64,000 bases of DNA from Acidobacteriota bacterium (GTDB lineage: Bacteria > Acidobacteriota > Blastocatellia > RBC074): the NCBI GenBank assembly GCA_016710075.1, contig JADJLO010000034.1, positions 13,484 to 77,483 on the forward strand, written 5' to 3'. Position numbers and translations under genes: made by a program. The notes under the pieces were generated by a model, which saw nothing but the letters and a program-made list of their open reading frames with translations, had not been told where the DNA came from and did no database searches. Positions 8,148 through 58,942 of this stretch are shown piece by piece (positions within the stretch are counted from its first letter, which is position 1; each line of letters starts with the position of its first letter).

Positions 8148-10925
8148 TTAGGCAGTCGTAGCCACGACAGCGCCGGTCTTGTCGGCCATGGCTGCGTGAG
8201 CGGCTGCGAGCAGTGCGATTGGTACGCGATAAGGCGAGCAACTGACATAGTTCATACCCGCCTTGTGGCAGAAGATGACCGATTCAGGATCACCTCCGTG
8301 CTCGCCGCAGATGCCGATCTTGAGATCGGCCTTGACCGAGCGCCCCTTTCTGATCCCCATTTCGATAAGCTGTCCGACACCCTCCTGATCGAGCGTCTGG
8401 AACGGATCATCCGGCATGATCTTGTGATCGACATAGTGAGGCAGGAAGCGTCCCGAATCGTCGCGGCTCAGTCCCATTGCAGTCTGAGTAAGGTCATTGG
8501 TGCCGAAGCTGAAGAACTGGGCGACCTCGGCGATGCGATTGGCGGTCAGGGCGGCTCTCGGCAACTCGATCATAGTGCCGACAAGATCCTCTCCCGTCTC
8601 GCCCTCGCGAGCAAAGTCCTCCTGTGCAACACGGTTGACGACATCCGCCTGCAGCTTCAGTTCATTCACATTGCCGACGAGCGGGATCATGATTTCGGGC
8701 TTGACGTCGATGCCTTCACGCTTGACCTTGACCGCGGCTTCGAAAATTGCGCGAGCCTGCATCTCCGTGATTTCAGGATAGACGATGCCGAGGCGGCAGC
8801 CGCGATGGCCGAGCATCGGATTGAACTCGTGAAGCTGTTCGACGCGGGCTTTGGCCTCCTTGAATGGCATGCGAATCTTCTTTGCCAGTTCCTTGAGCGC
8901 CTTGTCGTCGTGGGGAACGAATTCATGAAGCGGCGGATCGAGTGTGCGGATGGTCACCGGGTATCCGTTCATTGCGCTGAAGATGCCGACGAAATCCTCA
9001 CGCTGCAATTCGAGCAGCGCGGCAAGAGCGCCATGGTAGAGCTCCGACGGACGTTTGATCTTCTTCTTGATCTCGGCAATCCGCTTTTTGATCTCTTTGG
9101 CCTTCTCGCCGGAGGCTTTTTCAAGATCGCTTTTCGCGGCATCGAGCTGTTTTTCGATGCTCTTGTAATCGCCTGAAGAGAGGATCATCTGACGCACGCT
9201 GTCGATTCTTTCGCCCTCGAAGAACATGTGTTCGGTGCGGCAGAGGCCGATTCCCTCGGCTCCGAAGCTGCGGGCAACAGTTGCATCATGCGGCGTGTCC
9301 GCATTGGCGCGGACGCCAAGCTTGCGGAATTCATTGACCCACTCCATCAGTGTCTTGAAGTGGCCGCTGATCTCAGGGTTGATCAGCGTCACCTGCCCGG
9401 TTATAACCCTGCCGGTCGAGCCGTCAAGAGTGATCCAATCGCCTTCTTTGATCGTCACGTTGTTGGTGGTGAATTGTTTCGCAGAATAATCGATCGACAC
9501 ATCGCCGCAGCCGGCGACGCAGCATTTTCCCATCCCGCGCGCAACGACGGCCGCGTGAGAAGTCATACCGCCACGCGCCGTCAGAATCGCCTGAGCCAGA
9601 ACCATTCCGTGAAAATCCTCGGGCGAGGTCTCGATCCGAACAAGAATCACCTTCTCGCCTTTCTTGCCCAGAGCTTCGGCTGTGTCGGGATCGAAAACGA
9701 CCATGCCGCTGGCCGCGCCGGGCGATGCCGGCAGGCCGGTGGCGATGACGTTCACCTCCGACTTCGGATCGATCATGGGGTGGAGCAACTGATCAAGCTG
9801 CGCCGGCTCGACACGCTGAACTGCGGTGGCCTTGTCGATTACACCCTCCTTGACCATGTCCACAGCGATGCGAACAGCGGCAGCGCCGGTGCGCTTGGCG
9901 TTGCGTGTCTGCAGCATCCAGAGCCTGCCTCGCTCGATCGTGAATTCAAGATCCTGTACGTCCTTGTAATGTTTTTCCAGCCTCTGGGCGACCTTGTGGA
10001 AGTCGTCATAAATTTCCGGCATCTCCACCTTGAGCTGTGCAATCTTCTTAGGAGTGCGGATGCCGGCCACGACGTCCTCTCCCTGCGCGTTCTGCAGGTA
10101 TTCGCCGTAAAGCTCATGCTCGCCGGTTGAGACGTCCCTCGTGAAGGCCACACCCGTTCCCGAATCTTCGCCCATGTTTCCGAAGACCATGGTCATAATG
10201 TTGACTGCCGTTCCCAGATCGTCCGAAATCTTGTGAACCCGGCGATAATCCTTTGCCCGACGGCCGTTCCAGGAGGCAAAAACCGCCTTGATCGACAGTT
10301 CAAGCTGCTTGAGCGGATCGGTCGGAAAATCCTTGCCGGTCGCCTGCTTGACGATGACCTTGTAATCATCGACCAGCGCAGCGAGTTCCGCTGCGGGAAC
10401 TTTCGTGTCTTCGGTCACGCCTAGTCGTTTCTTGTATTCGTCAAACTTGTGCTCGAACTTCTCGGCATCTATCCCCATGACGATCTTGCCGAAGAGCTGT
10501 ATGAAACGGCGATAAGCGTCATACGAGAAACGCTCGTTGCCGGTAAGTTTCGCCAGCGCCCCTCGCGTCTCGTCGTTCAATCCGAGATTGAGAATCGTAT
10601 CCATCATTCCGGGCATCGAAAACTTCGCTCCGGAACGAACCGAAACCAGTAACGGATTGTCCGTCCCGCCAAATTTCTTACCCGTCGCTTCTTCGACTTT
10701 TCTGAGGGCGGCAAGCGATTCATCCCACATCCCTTCCGGGAATTTCTCTCCTGATGAATAGTAGGAGGTGCAGGCCTCAGTCGTAACGGTGAAGCCCGGC
10801 GGCACGGGAATCCCGGCATTGGTCATTTCAGCCAGCCCGGCGCCCTTCCCTCCAAGCAGATCCTTCATCGTGCCTGTTCCTTCGGCTTTGCCGTCGGCAT
10901 AAAGATAAACGTATTTTTTACTCAT
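8148..10925 (-). CDS. ppdK: pyruvate, phosphate dikinase
   Basis: MSKKYVYLYADGKAEGTGTMKDLLGGKGAGLAEM..., full-length ~925 aa with PEP-utilising and TIM-barrel regions. AAGGAG 8 nt upstream of ATG at 10925; the listed upstream extension overlaps the RBS. Confidence 0.9.
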   Translation of the reverse strand: MSKKYVYLYADGKAEGTGTMKDLLGGKGAGLAEMTNAGIPVPPGFTVTTEACTSYYSSGEKFPEGMWDESLAALRKVEEATGKKFGGTDNPLLVSVRSGAKFSMPGMMDTILNLGLNDETRGALAKLTGNERFSYDAYRRFIQLFGKIVMGIDAEKFEHKFDEYKKRLGVTEDTKVPAAELAALVDDYKVIVKQATGKDFPTDPLKQLELSIKAVFASWNGRRAKDYRRVHKISDDLGTAVNIMTMVFGNMGEDSGTGVAFTRDVSTGEHELYGEYLQNAQGEDVVAGIRTPKKIAQLKVEMPEIYDDFHKVAQRLEKHYKDVQDLEFTIERGRLWMLQTRNAKRTGAAAVRIAVDMVKEGVIDKATAVQRVEPAQLDQLLHPMIDPKSEVNVIATGLPASPGAASGMVVFDPDTAEALGKKGEKVILVRIETSPEDFHGMVLAQAILTARGGMTSHAAVVARGMGKCCVAGCGDVSIDYSAKQFTTNNVTIKEGDWITLDGSTGRVITGQVTLINPEISGHFKTLMEWVNEFRKLGVRANADTPHDATVARSFGAEGIGLCRTEHMFFEGERIDSVRQMILSSGDYKSIEKQLDAAKSDLEKASGEKAKEIKKRIAEIKKKIKRPSELYHGALAALLELQREDFVGIFSAMNGYPVTIRTLDPPLHEFVPHDDKALKELAKKIRMPFKEAKARVEQLHEFNPMLGHRGCRLGIVYPEITEMQARAIFEAAVKVKREGIDVKPEIMIPLVGNVNELKLQADVVNRVAQEDFAREGETGEDLVGTMIELPRAALTANRIAEVAQFFSFGTNDLTQTAMGLSRDDSGRFLPHYVDHKIMPDDPFQTLDQEGVGQLIEMGIRKGRSVKADLKIGICGEHGGDPESVIFCHKAGMNYVSCSPYRVPIALLAAAHAAMADKTGAVVATTA

Positions 10926-22796: not shown

Positions 22797-22858
22797 TAGA
22801 AATAATTAACAAATTAAAAAAAATAATTAAACAAATAAAATAACGAAAGGAAGAGCAT

Positions 22859-24276
<1,418 letters not shown>

Positions 24277-39254: not shown

Positions 39255-40532
<1,278 letters not shown>

Positions 40533-40561
40533 AAAAAATAAAACTGACGAGTCAAAAGAGT

Positions 40562-41800
40562 ATGAAAAATAAACCCGTAGTATCTACAACCGAAATCAGA
40601 TCTCATTTCCCCGCGCTGGAACGCAAACACAATGGATTTCCCGTGGCCTATTTCGATGGTCCCGGTGGCACTCAGACGCCACGCCAGGTCGCTGAGGCGA
40701 TGAGCGAGTATCTTTTCCATCATAACGCCAACACACACTGGGAATATCCTACCAGCGCCGAAACGGACGAACTGCTGCTGGATGCGCGCCGGACGATGGC
40801 CGAATTTTTCAACTGCCGGGCTGATGAAGTCTCGTTCGGCGCGAACATGACGACGATCACTTTTCATATCGCACGCGCCCTCGGCCGCCGATTCAACCCC
40901 GGCGATGAGATCGTGGTCACAGAGCTCGACCACCACGGCAACGTAGCCCCCTGGCTCGATATGGCGCGCGAGCGCGGCCTGACCGTCCGGACCGTCCGGA
41001 TGCTGACCGAAACCGGACAGCTCGACTGGGATGACCTGGCAGAGTCAATCAATCGCAACACGAAACTGCTGGCCATCGGCGCGGCATCAAATGCGCTGGG
41101 AACAATCAACGATATCCAGCGGGCTGTTCGTATGGCTCACGACGCGGGGGCCCTGGCTTATGTCGACGCTGTCCATTACGCCCCGCACAACCTCGTCGAT
41201 GTCCGTGATCTCGAATGCGACTTCCTGGCCTGCTCGGCTTACAAATTTTATGGCCCACACATCGGCGTTCTTTATGGCAGACACGATCTGATCGAATCGC
41301 TCGACGTGCCGAAACTCGAACCCGCTCCGAACGAAGCCCCCGACCGCCTCGAAACCGGCACTCAGAACCACGAAGGCATCGTTGGCGCAGCCGCAGCCGT
41401 CAAATTCCTGGCATCGTTCGCCGAGGGGAACACGCTTCGAGAAAAGCTGCAAAACTCATACTCGGCCCTCCACGATCGCGGCATGTCGCTGCTCACAAGA
41501 CTCTGGCACGGCCTTAATTCGATCGATGGAGTGACCGTTTACGGCCCCGACCCGAGCCAGCCAAGGACTCCGACCATTTCATTCACATACAAAGAAATCC
41601 CCTCGGTCGAAATAACCAGGCACCTCGTCAAACTCGGCGTCTTCGCATCCCACGGAGATTTCTACGCCCAGACGGTCATCGAAAGACTCGGCAAGGTCGA
41701 TCAGGGCCTGCTCCGTGTAGGCTGCTCCTGCTACTCAACCGAAGAGGAAATTGACAGACTGCTCGAAGGCGTCCGTGACTTCGCCCGGAATTCGAAGTAG
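40562..41800 (+). CDS. class-V aminotransferase-fold PLP enzyme (cysteine desulfurase-like)
   Basis: PLP-Lys context SAYKFYGPHIGVLYG; ~410 aa typical of the SufS/CsdA-like fold. Confidence 0.8.
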   Translation: MKNKPVVSTTEIRSHFPALERKHNGFPVAYFDGPGGTQTPRQVAEAMSEYLFHHNANTHWEYPTSAETDELLLDARRTMAEFFNCRADEVSFGANMTTITFHIARALGRRFNPGDEIVVTELDHHGNVAPWLDMARERGLTVRTVRMLTETGQLDWDDLAESINRNTKLLAIGAASNALGTINDIQRAVRMAHDAGALAYVDAVHYAPHNLVDVRDLECDFLACSAYKFYGPHIGVLYGRHDLIESLDVPKLEPAPNEAPDRLETGTQNHEGIVGAAAAVKFLASFAEGNTLREKLQNSYSALHDRGMSLLTRLWHGLNSIDGVTVYGPDPSQPRTPTISFTYKEIPSVEITRHLVKLGVFASHGDFYAQTVIERLGKVDQGLLRVGCSCYSTEEEIDRLLEGVRDFARNSK

Positions 41801-42471: not shown

Positions 42472-44140
<1,669 letters not shown>

Positions 44141-44269
44141 AATATCTTGTCATCAAATGCGAAAAAGGCAGCTAATGTCGCCTGATTGAGACCCCTGTTT
44201 TCGCCAATTTCAAGCTGGCTATAATTTTCAAGGAGCTATGATACGGTTGCCCTGTTTCAAACGCCCGCA

Positions 44270-44821
44270 TTATTGACCCACTGAGCCAGATTTCAGTATT
44301 TCATCAGTTGAAACCTCAACGACGTTTCCGCTCTTAACTATGAAATAAGTCATATGACTATTGGCATTGTAGCTTGGGGCAGAAATGCTATAGTACTTTC
44401 CGTCAAGCAACTGAGGCGGTTTGACATTGTCACGGGGGTATACCTGCCTGAACCCATGTGGAATTTCGCCATAAATTATTGTTGGTAAGTCAGGAATTCT
44501 CTTTCCCCTTCCAGGATCGAGTTGCCAAATTGTGCGATTTTCCCCAATTACTTGCTTTATCTTCAATAACTCTTCGTTGGTTACTATTTTGTCCGCTACA
44601 CCCACTACAAGCTTCACCTCGTCAAGTGAATATGGGCCCGAAACATACATCTGAGCAAGGATCCCATTGCCAGAAAAGGTGAGTTTAGGCGGGTTATCTT
44701 TGGTGACCCTCACCTTGGTGTCTATTTCACACCCTACGAGCATTGCCATCGAAAGCAAGGTCAGTAGCACAGCCGCTTTTCTAGTGACCATGTTATTTAT
44801 TATATTCATCCCGTTTCTCAT
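44270..44821 (-). CDS. lipoprotein, putative immunity protein for Rhs toxin cassette B
   Basis: Lipobox MLVGC. Paralogous to 45734..46156 (CxxEIDTK-R-...NPP-F-SG-G...SGPY...YG..P.GF.Q...EGKYY). Sits 14 nt after the toxin stop. Confidence 0.55.
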   Translation of the reverse strand: MRNGMNIINNMVTRKAAVLLTLLSMAMLVGCEIDTKVRVTKDNPPKLTFSGNGILAQMYVSGPYSLDEVKLVVGVADKIVTNEELLKIKQVIGENRTIWQLDPGRGKRIPDLPTIIYGEIPHGFRQVYPRDNVKPPQLLDGKYYSISAPSYNANSHMTYFIVKSGNVVEVSTDEILKSGSVGQ

Positions 44822-44834
44822 TTTTTCATATGCT

Positions 44835-45695
44835 TCATCTGTGCCCCACGACTATGCGCGTGCAAGGATGGAATGCTTTTATTGGAATCCCGAATAACCA
44901 TGATGCAACAAAATTCGAAAAGTGCCTTGCACCACCTGGTTTTGCTTCCTCCCAGTGTAGGCTAAACCTAACAGGACCGGCAATATCTGGATTAAAGTTT
45001 TTCCCAGGCCGCCCCATTGAAAAATGATACCATTCCCCGTTGTACTGTTTTCTGTAATCGTTATCTCCCCAGTGATCGAGATGGGGATCATTTGAGAACC
45101 GCTCCCATCCATTTACTTTTACCCTACCCTCAAAATCGCTAAAGCTTCCTGAGTTGGTTATCCTATAAGTGTGTGCATTTTCAATCCAATTATGTGCCAC
45201 TCCGATTGGATTGAGGAGTTGATTATAAATCCCGTTGGGGCCAATGGCTTGATCCCAAGGAGGTTCTCCACAGGGTTGATTTTTCTCTTGCTGATTCTGC
45301 ATATCACCCTGTTGCCCTCCTCCACCGCCACCACCTCCTCCACCACCGACATCACCCCCTCCGCCACTCCCTCTACCATTGTAATTGAAGTAGAGATACC
45401 ACAAGAACCTTAGATAATCCGCTCCAACATAAGACGGATTATCAGGTGGGCTGGAGGGAGGAATTGCCAGGAATAGCCCGGTAGGATCCGTGAAATTCAC
45501 CGGATCATTCCCGACATAGCTGTAGAGGTTCAGGCTCTGTGGATTGGCGGCATCAGCCGCCCCTAGTCCCAGCGGGTCCGCCTGCATGAACCTCCCTGAT
45601 TGTGATGGTAGAACCTCGCGTTGGCGTAATCCAGGTTTGTCGCCCAGTTCCACTCGTATCCGGTGAACTTCCTACTGTTGAGATAAGCTGGGTTT
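44835..45695 (-). CDS. orphan Rhs C-terminal tip + polymorphic toxin domain B (unassigned Cys/His-rich domain); 1-nt frameshift near 45590-45600
   Basis: ...AYLNSRKFTGYEWNWATNLDYANARFYHHNQG (one frame) then RFMQADPLGLGAADAANPQSLNLYSYVGNDPVNFTDPTGLF (DPxGL core end), then a Gly-rich linker and a CT domain with C..P.W, HWG, YNGEWYHFSMGRP. Confidence 0.65.
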
Positions 45696-45733
45696 ATGCA
45701 ATGTATGCAAAATTCGAGATTCCCTGTGCCAAA

Positions 45734-46156
45734 TTACTCTCTTTTAACTTCAACTGCGACATTGTTTTGGATTTTAAAGGCTGTAAAACCTGAACGTGCG
45801 CCGTGGACATAAACGAAAATAGTGTAATATTTTCCTTCCTCAAGAGGTATAGGTTGTCCTTGTTGAGGAAATTGCTGAGAGAAGCCTGATGGAAGAGAAC
45901 CATATGTAATAGGTATTAGCCTCCATACCGGCAGATCCGTCATTCCTGTGATTTCCCATAAACGCAAAGACTCAATGTTATTTAAGTTAGTGTATGGTCC
46001 GCTCATATGAATGTAAGGACAACAACCTGTGCCTGACAACTTAAATGTCGGCGGGTTTTTATTGTCAATCAGTCTAATCTTCGTATCGATCTCAAAAGTA
46101 CAGGCGCCTATTAAGAGTAATGCGATAACGATATTCAAAAACATATGCTTTCGCAT
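45734..46156 (-). CDS. lipoprotein, putative immunity protein for Rhs toxin cassette A
   Basis: MRKHMFLNIVIALLLIGAC lipobox; paralogue of 44270..44821. Confidence 0.55.
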   Translation of the reverse strand: MRKHMFLNIVIALLLIGACTFEIDTKIRLIDNKNPPTFKLSGTGCCPYIHMSGPYTNLNNIESLRLWEITGMTDLPVWRLIPITYGSLPSGFSQQFPQQGQPIPLEEGKYYTIFVYVHGARSGFTAFKIQNNVAVEVKRE

Positions 46157-46219
46157 AAAAACTATAGATAGTTTATCCATTCTTGCACTATTACTATTGA
46201 ATAGCATAGATCTGATTCC

Positions 46220-47865
46220 TCAAAATGGTCGCCTATACCAGGCACCCACAGGTGAAAACACATTTTTGTCCCACCAGTCTTTTGCGTGTTCTCTTGAAGA
46301 TGGTTGAAATAGTTGCTCGCAGTGAATGTCCAACCAGGACGGTGGTGAAGATGATAGCCAAGGTCGTCCGATTGTTAAGTGAAACCACATTCCATTATAG
46401 TAGTGCTCAAAGTCAGGTCCTCCCCAATGCGGAGGATTGATATTTATATAATGCTCCCATCCATTTCCAAGAGCCTTTTGGATTACTGAATAGTATGAGT
46501 TTGGTTTCCCTTTTGGTACTACTTGCCATTCATTATCCTTTATCGCATAGCTAAATCCTAAAGGATCTAAAACCATATTAAATGCTTTGACGGCTTCATC
46601 CCATTTAGGTGAATCGGGCCTACATTTTGACTTGACAGGTGGTTTATTCTGGTTTGGTGTCGCCGGATTTTGCTCCTCACCGCCACCACCTCCTCCGCCA
46701 CCAACATCACCCCACCAGCCGCCGGAAGTGTTCCACCCCCAATGCCAGCCCCATCCAAAACCAAATTCAGCTCCAACATACGACGGGTTATCAGGTGGGC
46801 TGGAGGGAGGAATTGCCAGGAATAGCCCGGTAGGATCCGTGAAATTCACCGGATCATTCCCGACATAGCTGTAGAGGTTCAGGCTCTGTGGATTGGCGGC
46901 ATCAGCCGCCCCTAGTCCCAGCGGGTCAGGCTGCATAAATCTGGCTCGGTTGTGATGGTAGGTTCGAGCATTAGCATCATCCAGATTCGTTGCCCAGTTG
47001 CGCTCATAGCCCGTGAACTTCTTGCTGTTCAGATAAGTCCCGCCCGGAGCCACTTCCAGCAGTGTCTGCCCGTGAGGATCGAACTCTCCGCGATAGGTCA
47101 CATTCCCATTCACATCTGTCAACTTCCGTCCGCTGCCCAGATGATCCGAATGTACCCAGTAGAATTGCGAATCATAGCTCAGCAGCCCAAGCGACTGTCC
47201 GCTCGGCCCGTAGACATAGGCTCGATACACACCTCCGGTCGTAGCTTCTACAACTGGCTGCCCCAGCACGCTCGACCAGATGTAATACAGATTCCCGTAC
47301 CCGCCCGTGTTCTGTACTACCTTCCGCCCGTCGCCGTCATAACCGTAGGTATTGCCGACGGCTCCTGCCGCCGTCAGCCGGTTCGCCGCGTCATAAGTAT
47401 AATTCCAGCCGCTGCCCGAAGTCATATTGCCGGCATTGTCATAGGCGAACCCCGTGTTGTTGATCCGGTTGGTCGATGGCGCTCCGCTCGCGTTCGTCGC
47501 ATAGCTCAAGCTATAGCTGCCCGTCTCGCCGCCTCTGCTTGCCGTCACCCCGGTCAGGTTCCCCTCACCCGGATAGGTCGTCAGGATGCCCACACCGGGA
47601 GCGGCGATGTGCACCTGTGTCGCGCTCCAGTTGGAGAAATTCGCCAACTGGTCGACATTCGTTTTCGCGGCCGCGGTGATCAGGTTTGAGGCTGAATAAC
47701 CCGCCGGATAGTAAGGTTTGGTCGAAATATCCTGCCCGTCGTTTCCCGCCGAGGCGACAACCAGCGTGCCTTTCGTCGACGCCCGATTGACGTCATCGAG
47801 CAGGGCTTGTGAAAACGCATTCACTCCGAAATCGATTGAGCCTCACCTGGCTGTGGAATTACAGC
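46220..47865 (-). CDS. chimeric protein: subtilisin (S8) fragment - Rhs C-terminal core/tip - polymorphic toxin domain A
   Basis: N-terminus GSIDFGVNAFSQALLDDVNRASTKGTLVVASAGNDG...FSNWSATQVHIAAPG (S8 region up to, but not including, the catalytic Ser). It switches at GNLTGVTAS into Rhs repeats, ...YLNSKKFTGYERNW...RFMQPDPLGLG...DPTGLF, then CT domain A (C..P.W, NGWEHY, PHWGG, YNGMWFHLTIGRP). Confidence 0.7.
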
Positions 47866-57004: not shown

Positions 57005-57430
57005 TTACATGACATTTTCACTTTCAGTGACCGTCTGCTGGTTAGCCAGCATCACCGCCAGAGTCTTTTCTGAAAAGAGCGTCGAATTTATCAGCGTCTG
57101 TACGACATGATTGCCGGGCTGAAAAAACGAGGTATTGACAAATACGGTGACATTGTCGGCGTAGCCGTCAGCAGGGACTGAAAACCCTGTGGGCTGTGAG
57201 ACCGCGATCGTCTGCATCCTGTCAGGCGTAAGGATTCTTACTTCGCTTAAATACTGTCCCTCGCCGCGCCAGTGGTTGATCACCGCCAGTTTGATAAGCG
57301 TCACAGGCAGTTGCGGAACCACCAGTTGATGCGTCACCCCCATCAGGCTCAGGTGATTTGTCGCTTCGACGCGAACGTCTTCACAGAATAAAGTGTAATC
57401 GAGTGTTAAATTGCTTGTTGATTGATTCAT
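57005..57430 (-). CDS. hypothetical protein (141 aa), immediately downstream of the peroxiredoxin on the same strand
   Basis: Open frame with an ATG; no recognised motif. 42-nt gap to the upstream gene suggests co-transcription. Confidence 0.45.
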   Translation of the reverse strand: MNQSTSNLTLDYTLFCEDVRVEATNHLSLMGVTHQLVVPQLPVTLIKLAVINHWRGEGQYLSEVRILTPDRMQTIAVSQPTGFSVPADGYADNVTVFVNTSFFQPGNHVVQTLINSTLFSEKTLAVMLANQQTVTESENVM

Positions 57431-57471
57431 CAGGGTTCTGCTTAAGTCAGGGCACTTTTAAATTTTCAGGT

Positions 57472-57915
57472 TTAGATCATTGACAACAATTCTTCAGGAT
57501 GAGTTGCCGCACTGACCTTTTCGAACACGTGTGCGATCCGGCCTTCCGGCGAAATCACATAGCTGATGCGTTTTGCGTAACCATCGGCTGTTGATTCACA
57601 TGCGCCGTACGCCAGACCCAGCGTCTTGTCCGTGTCGCATAGCAGCGGGAAATTGTAATTGAACTTTTCGGCAAACTTTCTGTTCTCTTCCATTGAATCG
57701 AAGCTGGCGCCCAGGATCTGAACATTTTTTTCGTCGTATTGTGTTTTTCGGTCACGGAACCCGCAACCCTCGGCCGTTCAGCCAGGCGTGTCGGCTTTTG
57801 GATAGAACCAGAGGACTACTGTCCTGCCGCTATAATCGCTTAACGAGACTTCGACACCTTCATGCGTCATGACTTTGAACCCCGGAGCTTCATCTCCAAC
57901 TTTGAGCATTGGCAT
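57472..57915 (-). CDS. Bcp/PrxQ-type peroxiredoxin with in-frame TGA at the peroxidatic-Cys codon (candidate selenoprotein; otherwise a pseudogene)
   Basis: GGGAGG-9 nt-ATG at 57915. MPMLKVGDEAPGFKV...VVLWFYPKADTPG-[TGA 57778-57780]-TAEGCGFRDRKTQYDEKNVQILGASFDSMEENRKFAEKFNYNFPLLCDTDKTLGLAYGA... are all one frame (ORFs 57778..57990 and 57472..57693 share a frame). Motif T-P-G-U-x-x-x-x-C. Hairpin GGUUGCGG-GUU-CCGUGACC starts 10 nt after UGA. Confidence 0.6.
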
Positions 57916-57960
57916 TTCTTCTGACCTCCCTTGTTTGATTATTGAATTACCGTGATAAGT

Positions 57961-58215
57961 GTACCGTAAATAATGAAAAAAACGGAACAAACGGAAGGAG
58001 GTGAAAGGAAGTATCTGGAGAGCAATCGGGAAAATAATTCGGCGAAATGGCCATACGAGCTGGGGCGCAGGCGTCTCGCCTGCGTATTATTTGTTATTGA
58101 GAAAATGTTGTTTCACGAGTTTGCATCTTACCACTCATCGCAGGCGAGACGCCTGGCGCCCCTCACTCGTATGGCCATTTCGGCAGTGAACTCTTTAAAC
58201 TTTGAACTGATTTCC
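57961..58215. repeat. long-inverted-repeat element (~40-bp arms GAAATGGCCATACGAG..GGGGCGCAGGCGTCTCGCCTGCG around a 57-bp centre) plus flanking heptamers
   Basis: Left CGGCGAAATGGCCATACGAGCTGGGGCGCAGGCGTCTCGCCTGCG; right CGCAGGCGAGACGCCTGGCGCCCCTCACTCGTATGGCCATTTCGGC; then CTTTAAACTTTGAACT. Confidence 0.7.
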
Positions 58216-58219
58216 AGGA

Positions 58220-58942
58220 TCACTGTCGTGGCCTGATCTTTCTCTCGGGTTCGGCTTTGCCGATCTGGTCAAAGCTGATATTGAGAACCTGGTATGATTG
58301 CCAGTCCTTGTAATCGAAATGCCACCATTCATTTCCGTCGACTGTGAAGCCTTCGGCTTCAATAGACGAACGGAGCATATCGCGCAGGCGGCGCTGCTCG
58401 TCGGTGCCGCCTTTGTACGTCGGAAAGGCTCTCTCGGTGAATTCATCGTAGCCGCTGGGCATTTCGATCTCTTTGCCGGTTTTGAGGTCATAGATGGAAA
58501 GATCTACGGCGCAGCCGCGGTTGTGTTTCGAACCTTTGGCCGGGTTGGCGACGAACATGTGCTTGTCGGGAGGCGTCTCGTCCCAGAATATCTTTGTCAC
58601 GGCCCAAGGACGATATCCATCGAAGATCAGCAGCCCGTAGCCTTTTTCCATGAGTTTGCGATGAGCCTTGAGCAGGGCTTCAGCGGCGGGGCGCTGCAAA
58701 AAAGCGCGTTCTTCCTTGTAAACCGGTTTTCCGAGGAAGTTGGTCGATTTCGCGTAACGGATATCGAGCTTGATCGTCGGGTCCATTTTGATCAGTTCGA
58801 CCAGATCGGGCGGCTTGAAGTTCCCTTCCTCCCTGGGCATTCGCTGCTGTGCTGGAACGCCGGTCCAGAGAAGGATAAGCAATGCCACGGGCAGAAAACC
58901 GCCCGCGACTCGTTGATGATTCATTGTCGAATTTATTTTCAT
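58220..58942 (-). CDS. secreted D-Ala-D-Ala dipeptidase (M15D, VanX/DdpX-like)
   Basis: Signal peptide; LDIRYAKSTNFLGKPVY, FDGYRPW, SKHNRGCAVDL, NEWWHF (Zn ligands and catalytic residues). Confidence 0.75.
   Translation of the reverse strand: MKINSTMNHQRVAGGFLPVALLILLWTGVPAQQRMPREEGNFKPPDLVELIKMDPTIKLDIRYAKSTNFLGKPVYKEERAFLQRPAAEALLKAHRKLMEKGYGLLIFDGYRPWAVTKIFWDETPPDKHMFVANPAKGSKHNRGCAVDLSIYDLKTGKEIEMPSGYDEFTERAFPTYKGGTDEQRRLRDMLRSSIEAEGFTVDGNEWWHFDYKDWQSYQVLNISFDQIGKAEPERKIRPRQ

Follow-up and report, generated by a model that had tools for sequence, protein, structure and literature searches.

The window, by which we mean the whole 64-kb stretch of DNA that was analysed, carries on its minus strand a gene for a peroxiredoxin of the Bcp/PrxQ type, which lies in the order peptidase M15, peroxiredoxin, DUF6941 and transketolase, with all four genes on the same strand and the same order recurring in metagenome-assembled genomes (MAGs) of the same species. 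The features of the locus are the following.

58220-58942, minus strand: peptidase M15 gene, upstream of the peroxiredoxin gene
57925..57930, minus strand: Shine-Dalgarno sequence GGGAGG, with a 9-nt spacer to the peroxiredoxin ATG, read from the sequence
57915-57913, minus strand: start codon ATG, read from the sequence
57472..57915, minus strand: coding sequence of the Bcp/PrxQ-type peroxiredoxin, 147 residues, reading through one UGA as residue 46
57778..57780, minus strand: UGA codon at the peroxidatic position (PKADTPG-U-TAEGC), the putative selenocysteine (Sec) codon
57763..57765, minus strand: codon of Cys51, the putative resolving Cys (peroxidatic position +5), within the 5' arm of the hairpin
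57750..57768, minus strand: hairpin GGUUGCGG-GUU-CCGUGACC, with an 8-bp stem and a 3-nt loop beginning G-U
57474-57472, minus strand: stop codon TAA of the peroxiredoxin gene, read from the sequence
57005..57430, minus strand: gene for a DUF6941 protein of 141 aa (Pfam DUF6941, 8e-10), starting 41 nt past the peroxiredoxin stop

On translation, the peroxiredoxin frame comprises 147 sense codons with the TGA at 57780-57778 as its sole internal stop, and the two listed open reading frames (ORFs) that flank this codon, 57778..57990 and 57472..57693, share one frame. The first-pass annotation had described a single Bcp/PrxQ frame running from a ribosome-binding site and ATG at 57915 to the stop at 57472, broken by nothing other than the TGA at 57778-57780 and free of frameshifts, and this description holds, with the AhpC-TSA domain match extending over the full length. 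In the translated product (...VVLWFYPKADTPG*TAEGCGFRDRK..., also WFYPKADTPG*TAEGCGFRD, the asterisk standing for the TGA), the interrupted position is the Cys slot of the PxxxTxxC peroxiredoxin motif (P39-K-A-D-T43-P-G-U46), and Cys51 is present five residues past U46, such that translation and motif agree with the earlier placement of the TGA on the peroxidatic Cys and of an intact resolving Cys at +5.

With Cys substituted at the interrupted position, the protein matches the Pfam AhpC-TSA domain (PF00578) end to end, from residue 6 to 129 and over positions 1-123 of the 124 in the profile, with an E value of 1.7e-34 and a score of 118.9 bits (cut-off 26). Among NCBIfam models, that of the Bcp thiol peroxidase (NF006960; 118.7 bits, E 2e-34) scores highest; the window protein misses its equivalog cut-off of 140 and, judged by these profile scores, belongs to the Bcp subfamily without being an E. 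coli Bcp orthologue. The nearest solved structures are the Bcp proteins 3drn and 5iph/3gkk (E 2e-25 to 3drn), and the catalytic Arg aligns as well, Arg116 in KRISYVI corresponding to the Arg of ARITFVI in 3drn. E. coli BCP is an atypical 2-Cys peroxiredoxin with peroxidatic Cys45 and resolving Cys50, and we take Cys51 of the window protein to be the counterpart of the resolving Cys in enzymes of this type. The window protein thus resembles E. coli BCP and the three structures in fold family, in the spacing between U46 and C51 and presumably in its dependence on thioredoxin, while it differs from E. coli BCP in the putative Sec that replaces the peroxidatic Cys and in lying below the NCBIfam equivalog cut-off (118.7 vs 140).

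Two other classes of selenoprotein were considered and rejected. PrxU of Eubacterium acidaminophilum has been shown by experiment to be a Sec-peroxiredoxin (Sohling et al. 2001, as cited in PMC13188914), and it resembles the window gene in having Sec at the peroxidatic position of a peroxiredoxin; it belongs, however, to a different Prx subfamily, and the window protein, which is about 85 residues shorter than the PrxU model (NF040737), reaches 52.7 bits on it against a cut-off of 270. Membership among the UxxC/UxxU Prx-like thiol:disulfide oxidoreductase selenoproteins was discarded on the motif, TPGU-TAEG-C being TxxU and not UxxC under the definitions of PMC9312934.

Downstream, co-transcription of the peroxiredoxin and DUF6941 genes is plausible, because the 41-nt gap between them holds no minus-strand terminator-like site. 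The DUF6941 gene adjoins the peroxiredoxin gene in only one of 80 species loci, that of the nearest relative (L001), and a functional module of the two genes as a feature of the family was therefore rejected in favour of local synteny. The downstream ORF of 141 aa that the first-pass annotation had called probably co-transcribed is thus real and has a family, and its co-transcription stands as plausible, while the pairing is not conserved beyond L001. The intergenic gap that separates the peptidase M15 gene from the promoter region of the peroxiredoxin gene holds a strong palindromic hairpin (58065-58085, GCGCAGGCG-TCT-CGCCTGCGT) of 9 bp, 7 of them G-C, with its T-run on the plus strand, on which no gene terminates there.

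The interrupted codon in relatives

Orthologues were compared as the 80 closest loci, one genome per species, at 55-76% identity. The aligned codon is TGA in 62 of these species loci and TGC or TGT in the remaining 18, an outcome that answers the question, raised with the original observation, of which codon related genomes carry. The TGA-bearing loci span Blastocatellia, Vicinamibacteria, Thermoanaerobaculia, Polarisedimenticolia, Terriglobia and "Marinacidobacterales", and are also found in a few myxobacterial, planctomycete and other MAGs. Past the TGA, the frame stays open for 98-110 codons, as it does in the Cys forms, in all 67 TGA loci (the 62 species loci and five conspecific ones). 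The resolving position is more variable, being Cys in the window and I, K, N, S or R in many Sec orthologues.

Six assemblies of the same species, labelled "Acidobacteria bacterium", were located through the exact protein of the DUF6941 neighbour and are 96-98% identical to the window over 13-20 kb, with many indels between conspecifics. Five of the six, from independent samples and with one short-read Logan assembly among them, have TGA. The sixth (L084; GCA_016717465.1, contig JADKFO010000011.1) has TGC at 9651-9653, the position orthologous to window 57778-57780; its protein, deposited as MBK9707546.1 "peroxiredoxin", is otherwise identical to that of the window, and its hairpin, of the type A described below, is intact. 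The TGC of this error-prone assembly reflects either a very recent switch from Sec to Cys within the species or a consensus error. A close relative with Cys had been named beforehand, together with loss of the hairpin, as what would speak against a selenoprotein; what was found is a single conspecific, in the minority, in which the hairpin is kept.

An open frame that persists together with TGA in 62 of 80 species and in five of six conspecifics indicates that the codon is neither a sequencing error nor the mark of a decaying pseudogene, in agreement with the first-pass annotation, which had judged a substitution or a pseudogene to be the less likely case. Reading of UGA as a sense codon throughout the genome was rejected, since complete genes of the window terminate in TGA, among them the EPSP synthase gene, which has a complete Pfam match and ends at TGA 26759, and an ABC ATPase gene that ends at TGA 58949.

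The hairpin downstream of the UGA

The 8-bp stem with a GUU loop that the first-pass annotation had placed 10 nt after the UGA is present exactly as described, at 57768-57750, its first stem base being the 10th nucleotide past the UGA (9 nt between) and the spacing from UGA to loop being 17 nt. It is the predicted minimum-free-energy (MFE) structure, at -9.3 kcal/mol alone and -10.9 kcal/mol within 48 nt. As quoted in PMC13188914, the bSECIS model asks for a loop of 3-9 nt, an upper stem of 4-16 bp, a UGA-loop spacing of 16-37 nt, G in loop position 1 or 2 and an MFE of -7.5 kcal/mol or lower; the window hairpin, to which the model was applied as had been proposed, lies within each of these limits (loop GUU, 8 bp, 17 nt, -9.3 to -10.9 kcal/mol). 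The hairpin is weaker than the family consensus (-9.3 vs -11.9 kcal/mol) because it contains two G-U pairs, and the folding energy of the single window sequence is not exceptional against shuffles (z = -0.47). The case that the hairpin exceeds chance is therefore comparative and not thermodynamic.

Across the Sec loci, two hairpin designs occur, and one Sec locus has neither.

Type A: consensus GGUUGCGG-GUU-CCGCGACC, in 54 Sec loci, the window and the five TGA conspecifics being counted
Type B: GGAUUC-CGUGAYC-GAAUCC, with a 7-nt loop and often extended to 8 bp, in 13 Sec loci, a few bases further on

A downstream hairpin of either type is present in 62 of 63 Sec species (the 62 species with TGA and the window's own) vs 6 of 18 Cys species. 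Paired cells make up 96.3% of type A across 50 distinct sequences, compared with 42-51% when the 3' partner is slid, and 91.1% of type B, compared with 5-57%. Pairs altered on both sides number one in type A and three in type B. Covariation in type A is confined to one pair because its helix is nearly invariant: in six Thermoanaerobaculia, a G-C pair has become C-G, a Cys-to-Ser change (UGC to UCC) in the 5' arm being offset in the 3' arm by CGG in place of CGC, both of which encode Arg. The type A helix overlaps strongly conserved codons (E-G-C-G-F-R-D), and coding constraint alone is enough for 7 of 8 pairs in some Cys forms.

Synonymous sites separate the two kinds of gene more sharply. At codons +4 to +9, a freeze of synonymous choice is found in Sec forms only, as the following counts illustrate.

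Phe +7, TTC/TTT: Sec forms 57/0, Cys forms 8/9
Cys +5, TGC/TGT: Sec forms 37/0, Cys forms 9/7
Gly +6, GGG or GGA/other: Sec forms 63/0, Cys forms 9/5

Sec and Cys forms differ little at control codons upstream of the UGA. Fisher tests on these contrasts ignore shared ancestry and are descriptive. The freeze at synonymous sites is stronger evidence for an RNA element than the covariation is. A gathering-threshold Rfam scan of the window and a permissive scan of 57400-58000 returned neither SECIS nor another relevant RNA family, a blank to be expected, given that no curated model of such an element exists.

The hairpin bears comparison with the SECIS elements of E. coli fdhF and fdnG and with the bSECIS consensus (Zhang and Gladyshev 2005, as summarised in PMC13188914), with which it has in common a stem-loop inside the ORF, a loop that starts with G-U and a spacing within 16-37 nt. 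Unlike the fdhF and fdnG elements, to which it has no sequence resemblance, it lacks a bulged U, and its loop is very small, with 3 nt, which become 5 nt on opening of the closing G-C pair.

Decoding of the UGA

Conservation of the UGA, the open frame beyond it, the hairpin and the synonymous freeze in TGA forms all support the reading put forward in the first-pass annotation, and we consider it very probable that the UGA is recoded, most likely as selenocysteine, in a Sec-containing Bcp/PrxQ peroxiredoxin of an uncultured, Blastocatellia-like Acidobacteriota. From these comparisons, we infer the identity of the inserted residue as Sec, the reading of the hairpin by SelB and the redox cycle. 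During translation, the hairpin 9 nt past the UGA would act as a bacterial SECIS, with SelB carrying Sec-tRNA(Sec) binding to the apical G-U loop when the ribosome arrives at the UGA. Delivery of Sec would then compete with release factor 2 (RF2) at this codon and yield the full enzyme of 147 residues. In catalysis, the Sec46 selenolate would attack the peroxide and be converted to a selenenic acid, which Cys51, at position +5 as in E. coli BCP, would resolve into an intramolecular selenenylsulfide, and thioredoxin would reduce the latter and so recycle the enzyme. Sec orthologues that lack Cys51 would act as one-Sec enzymes.

This reading places the gene in a family that is already established. 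"Peroxiredoxin (Prx)", assigned to COG1225 (Bcp) and PF00578 and bearing the motif TxxU, is listed as a selenoprotein family (PMC9312934, table 1; PMC13188914), just as the first-pass annotation had stated of Sec-peroxiredoxins in bacteria, and a conserved PxxxTxxU motif is described in selenoproteome reviews (PMC9312934, PMC13188914). Zhang et al. in 2006 counted 12 Prx selenoprotein genes and several Cys-to-Sec events (PMC1794560). Compared by description with this family (representative WP_011365628.1), the window gene agrees in Pfam domain, in having a Bcp-type best model, in a putative Sec at PxxxTxxU, in a SECIS-type hairpin directly downstream inside the coding sequence and in Cys homologues that are interleaved with Sec forms. 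It differs in coming from an uncultured Acidobacteriota and in that the sampled clade has a Sec majority (62 of 80) and two hairpin designs, and in nothing of kind. As far as comparison of sequences can tell, the gene is therefore a member of a catalogued family that fits on every feature tested, an annotation catch and no discovery.

For the Sec machinery itself, ARAGORN found only a tRNA-Gly and a tRNA-Leu in the 64-kb window and no tRNA-Sec, nor was tRNA-Sec found in the flank of any fetched locus. SelA, SelB and SelD were absent from a Pfam search of 20 of the longer ORFs of the window, and six-frame scans for the SelB G1, SelD N-terminal and SelA PLP-Lys motifs gave no match in the window or in the 86 fetched loci. 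When the window was screened for pairs of ORFs in the same frame joined by a single TGA, only the peroxiredoxin had a redox-type context. Acidobacteria were recorded as selenoprotein users by 2006, with three families and four selenoproteins (PMC1794560), and this record, together with the comparative signature described above, suggests that the genome carries the Sec machinery. On the plus strand of the window, at 40442-41797, lies a class-V aminotransferase gene (Aminotran_5, E 2e-72); its family includes cysteine desulfurases and selenocysteine lyases, and membership in it is by itself no evidence for selenium metabolism.

The alternative that fares best keeps the recoding of the UGA but replaces Sec, wholly or in part, by Cys or Ser, which a suppressor such as a selC* tRNA-Cys together with SelB, or an allo-tRNA, could insert. 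Acidobacteria do have 8/4 and 9/3 allo-tRNAs, which have been proposed as missense or nonsense suppressors, and a selC* tRNA-Cys that mimics tRNA-Sec is known in other phyla, although the reported cases come from Firmicutes, Thermodesulfobacteria, Nitrospirae and Proteobacteria and not from Acidobacteria (PMC5389517). The blank searches for Sec machinery in the window and the fetched flanks are compatible with such decoding, as is the frequent interconversion of Cys and Sec forms within the clade. Nevertheless, a SelB-type hairpin kept beside the UGA is a signature of the Sec pathway, and it is at this position that Sec and Cys classically alternate in the catalogued selenoprotein family. We accordingly hold insertion of a residue other than Sec by such a suppressor tRNA to be quite improbable.

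Far less can be said for the TGA as a sequencing or consensus error, or as a recent nonsense mutation, in a Cys-type Bcp gene that would then be an artefact or a pseudogene. The window and its relatives do resemble long-read MAGs with broken genes, gene calls being fragmented in two conspecific assemblies (L082 and L084) and indels frequent among conspecifics, and L084 reads TGC. Against this, the same TGA recurs in assemblies of separate samples, short reads included, and across most of the species compared; the 67 loci show no decay downstream of it, and the hairpin and the synonymous freeze are specific to TGA forms. Conservation across species effectively refutes an error or nonsense mutation, as judged from these alignments, and we give such an origin hardly any weight. 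Termination at the UGA, which would leave a 45-residue N-terminal peptide and perhaps a separate 73-residue product from an internal ATG, is just as improbable, for although Prodigal-type callers predict these very products and RF2 always competes at Sec codons, neither fragment would make a functional thioredoxin fold, every orthologue conserves the protein sequence of the 28 codons that separate the TGA from the internal ATG, and many orthologues keep the full frame.

Annotation and Sec/Cys switching in the clade

With the UGA read as Sec, the value of the finding lies mainly in annotation, since standard ORF callers cut the gene in two. The first-pass annotation had predicted such splitting, and it is borne out by the products of 45 aa and 73 aa that three assemblies list and by the public protein collection, in which the gene is stored mainly as fragments of these two lengths named "peroxiredoxin Q/BCP". 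Even in the cluster with the full-length Cys variant, the representative is a 73-aa fragment, and for this reason a 100%-identical protein was missing from the homology search. An exact look-up of the 147-residue sequence with X at the interrupted position found no entry in the collection. In the NCBI gene tables of two conspecific MAGs (L081 and L082), on the other hand, a single product of 147 residues runs across the TGA. We infer that NCBI annotated the gene there with a Sec exception, because an ORF caller using table 11 would not call a product through TGA. The description of the gene as unannotated thus applies to the assemblies with split calls and fails for L081 and L082. Recognition as a selenoprotein restores an antioxidant enzyme to the metabolic model of a lineage of activated-sludge and soil Acidobacteriota and carries the implication of a selenium requirement and of Sec machinery in the organism; as such, the peroxiredoxin opens no new biological question.

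The one aspect that is possibly worth a closer look is the switching between Sec and Cys at the level of the clade. In a rough neighbour-joining tree, Cys forms, L015, L046 and the conspecific L084 among them, appear at several separate places inside Sec clades, a nesting that agrees with the frequent Sec/Cys interconversion already published. At the resolving position, the residue is I, K or N in all 13 type B loci (L007, L008, L010-L013, L019, L022, L027, L033, L034, L047 and L055), in which the hairpin lies about 17-39 nt past the TGA, and C, S and R are found there only with type A, apart from one locus of neither type. It is possible, but in our estimate unlikely, that Sec prevails and is perhaps ancestral in an Acidobacteriota-centred Bcp clade in which the codons of the active-site helix also spell out the SECIS, by either of two interchangeable designs. 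If this is true and has not already been described, the clade would offer a compact natural system for the trade-off between RNA structure and protein constraint during Sec/Cys switching. More remote than this clade-wide reading is a suppressor tRNA other than tRNA-Sec, akin to the acidobacterial allo-tRNAs, as the decoder of the UGA.

Several smaller observations belong beside this comparison. A third group of loci combines the helix of the window type either with Ser (UCC) and a compensating CGG or with Arg. Two Blastocatellia orthologues with TGC (L015:3130 and L046:3130) retain a type B hairpin, and the rough tree puts them beside a Sec form (L011); they look like recent reversions from Sec to Cys that keep a relic SECIS. 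Six Blastocatellia loci (L011, L012, L015, L025, L039 and L046) have, 0.1-2.3 kb upstream of the peroxiredoxin gene, a gene for tRNA-Arg(CCG), a conserved synteny that is not found in the species of the window.

Elsewhere in the window, a Peptidase_S8/RHS-repeat (YD-shell) region on the minus strand (42472-47842) is split into at least six consecutive ORFs. An alignment of its segment 46827-47521 with a conspecific MAG reaches only 81% and opens 72 gaps, and the region may be a large Rhs-type toxin gene broken up either by indel errors or by genuine variation. On the plus strand, the ORF of a Glu/Leu/Phe/Val dehydrogenase (22844-23959) covers only positions 1-160 of the 241-position profile of the catalytic domain and may be frameshifted, in line with the indel errors that the first-pass annotation mentioned.
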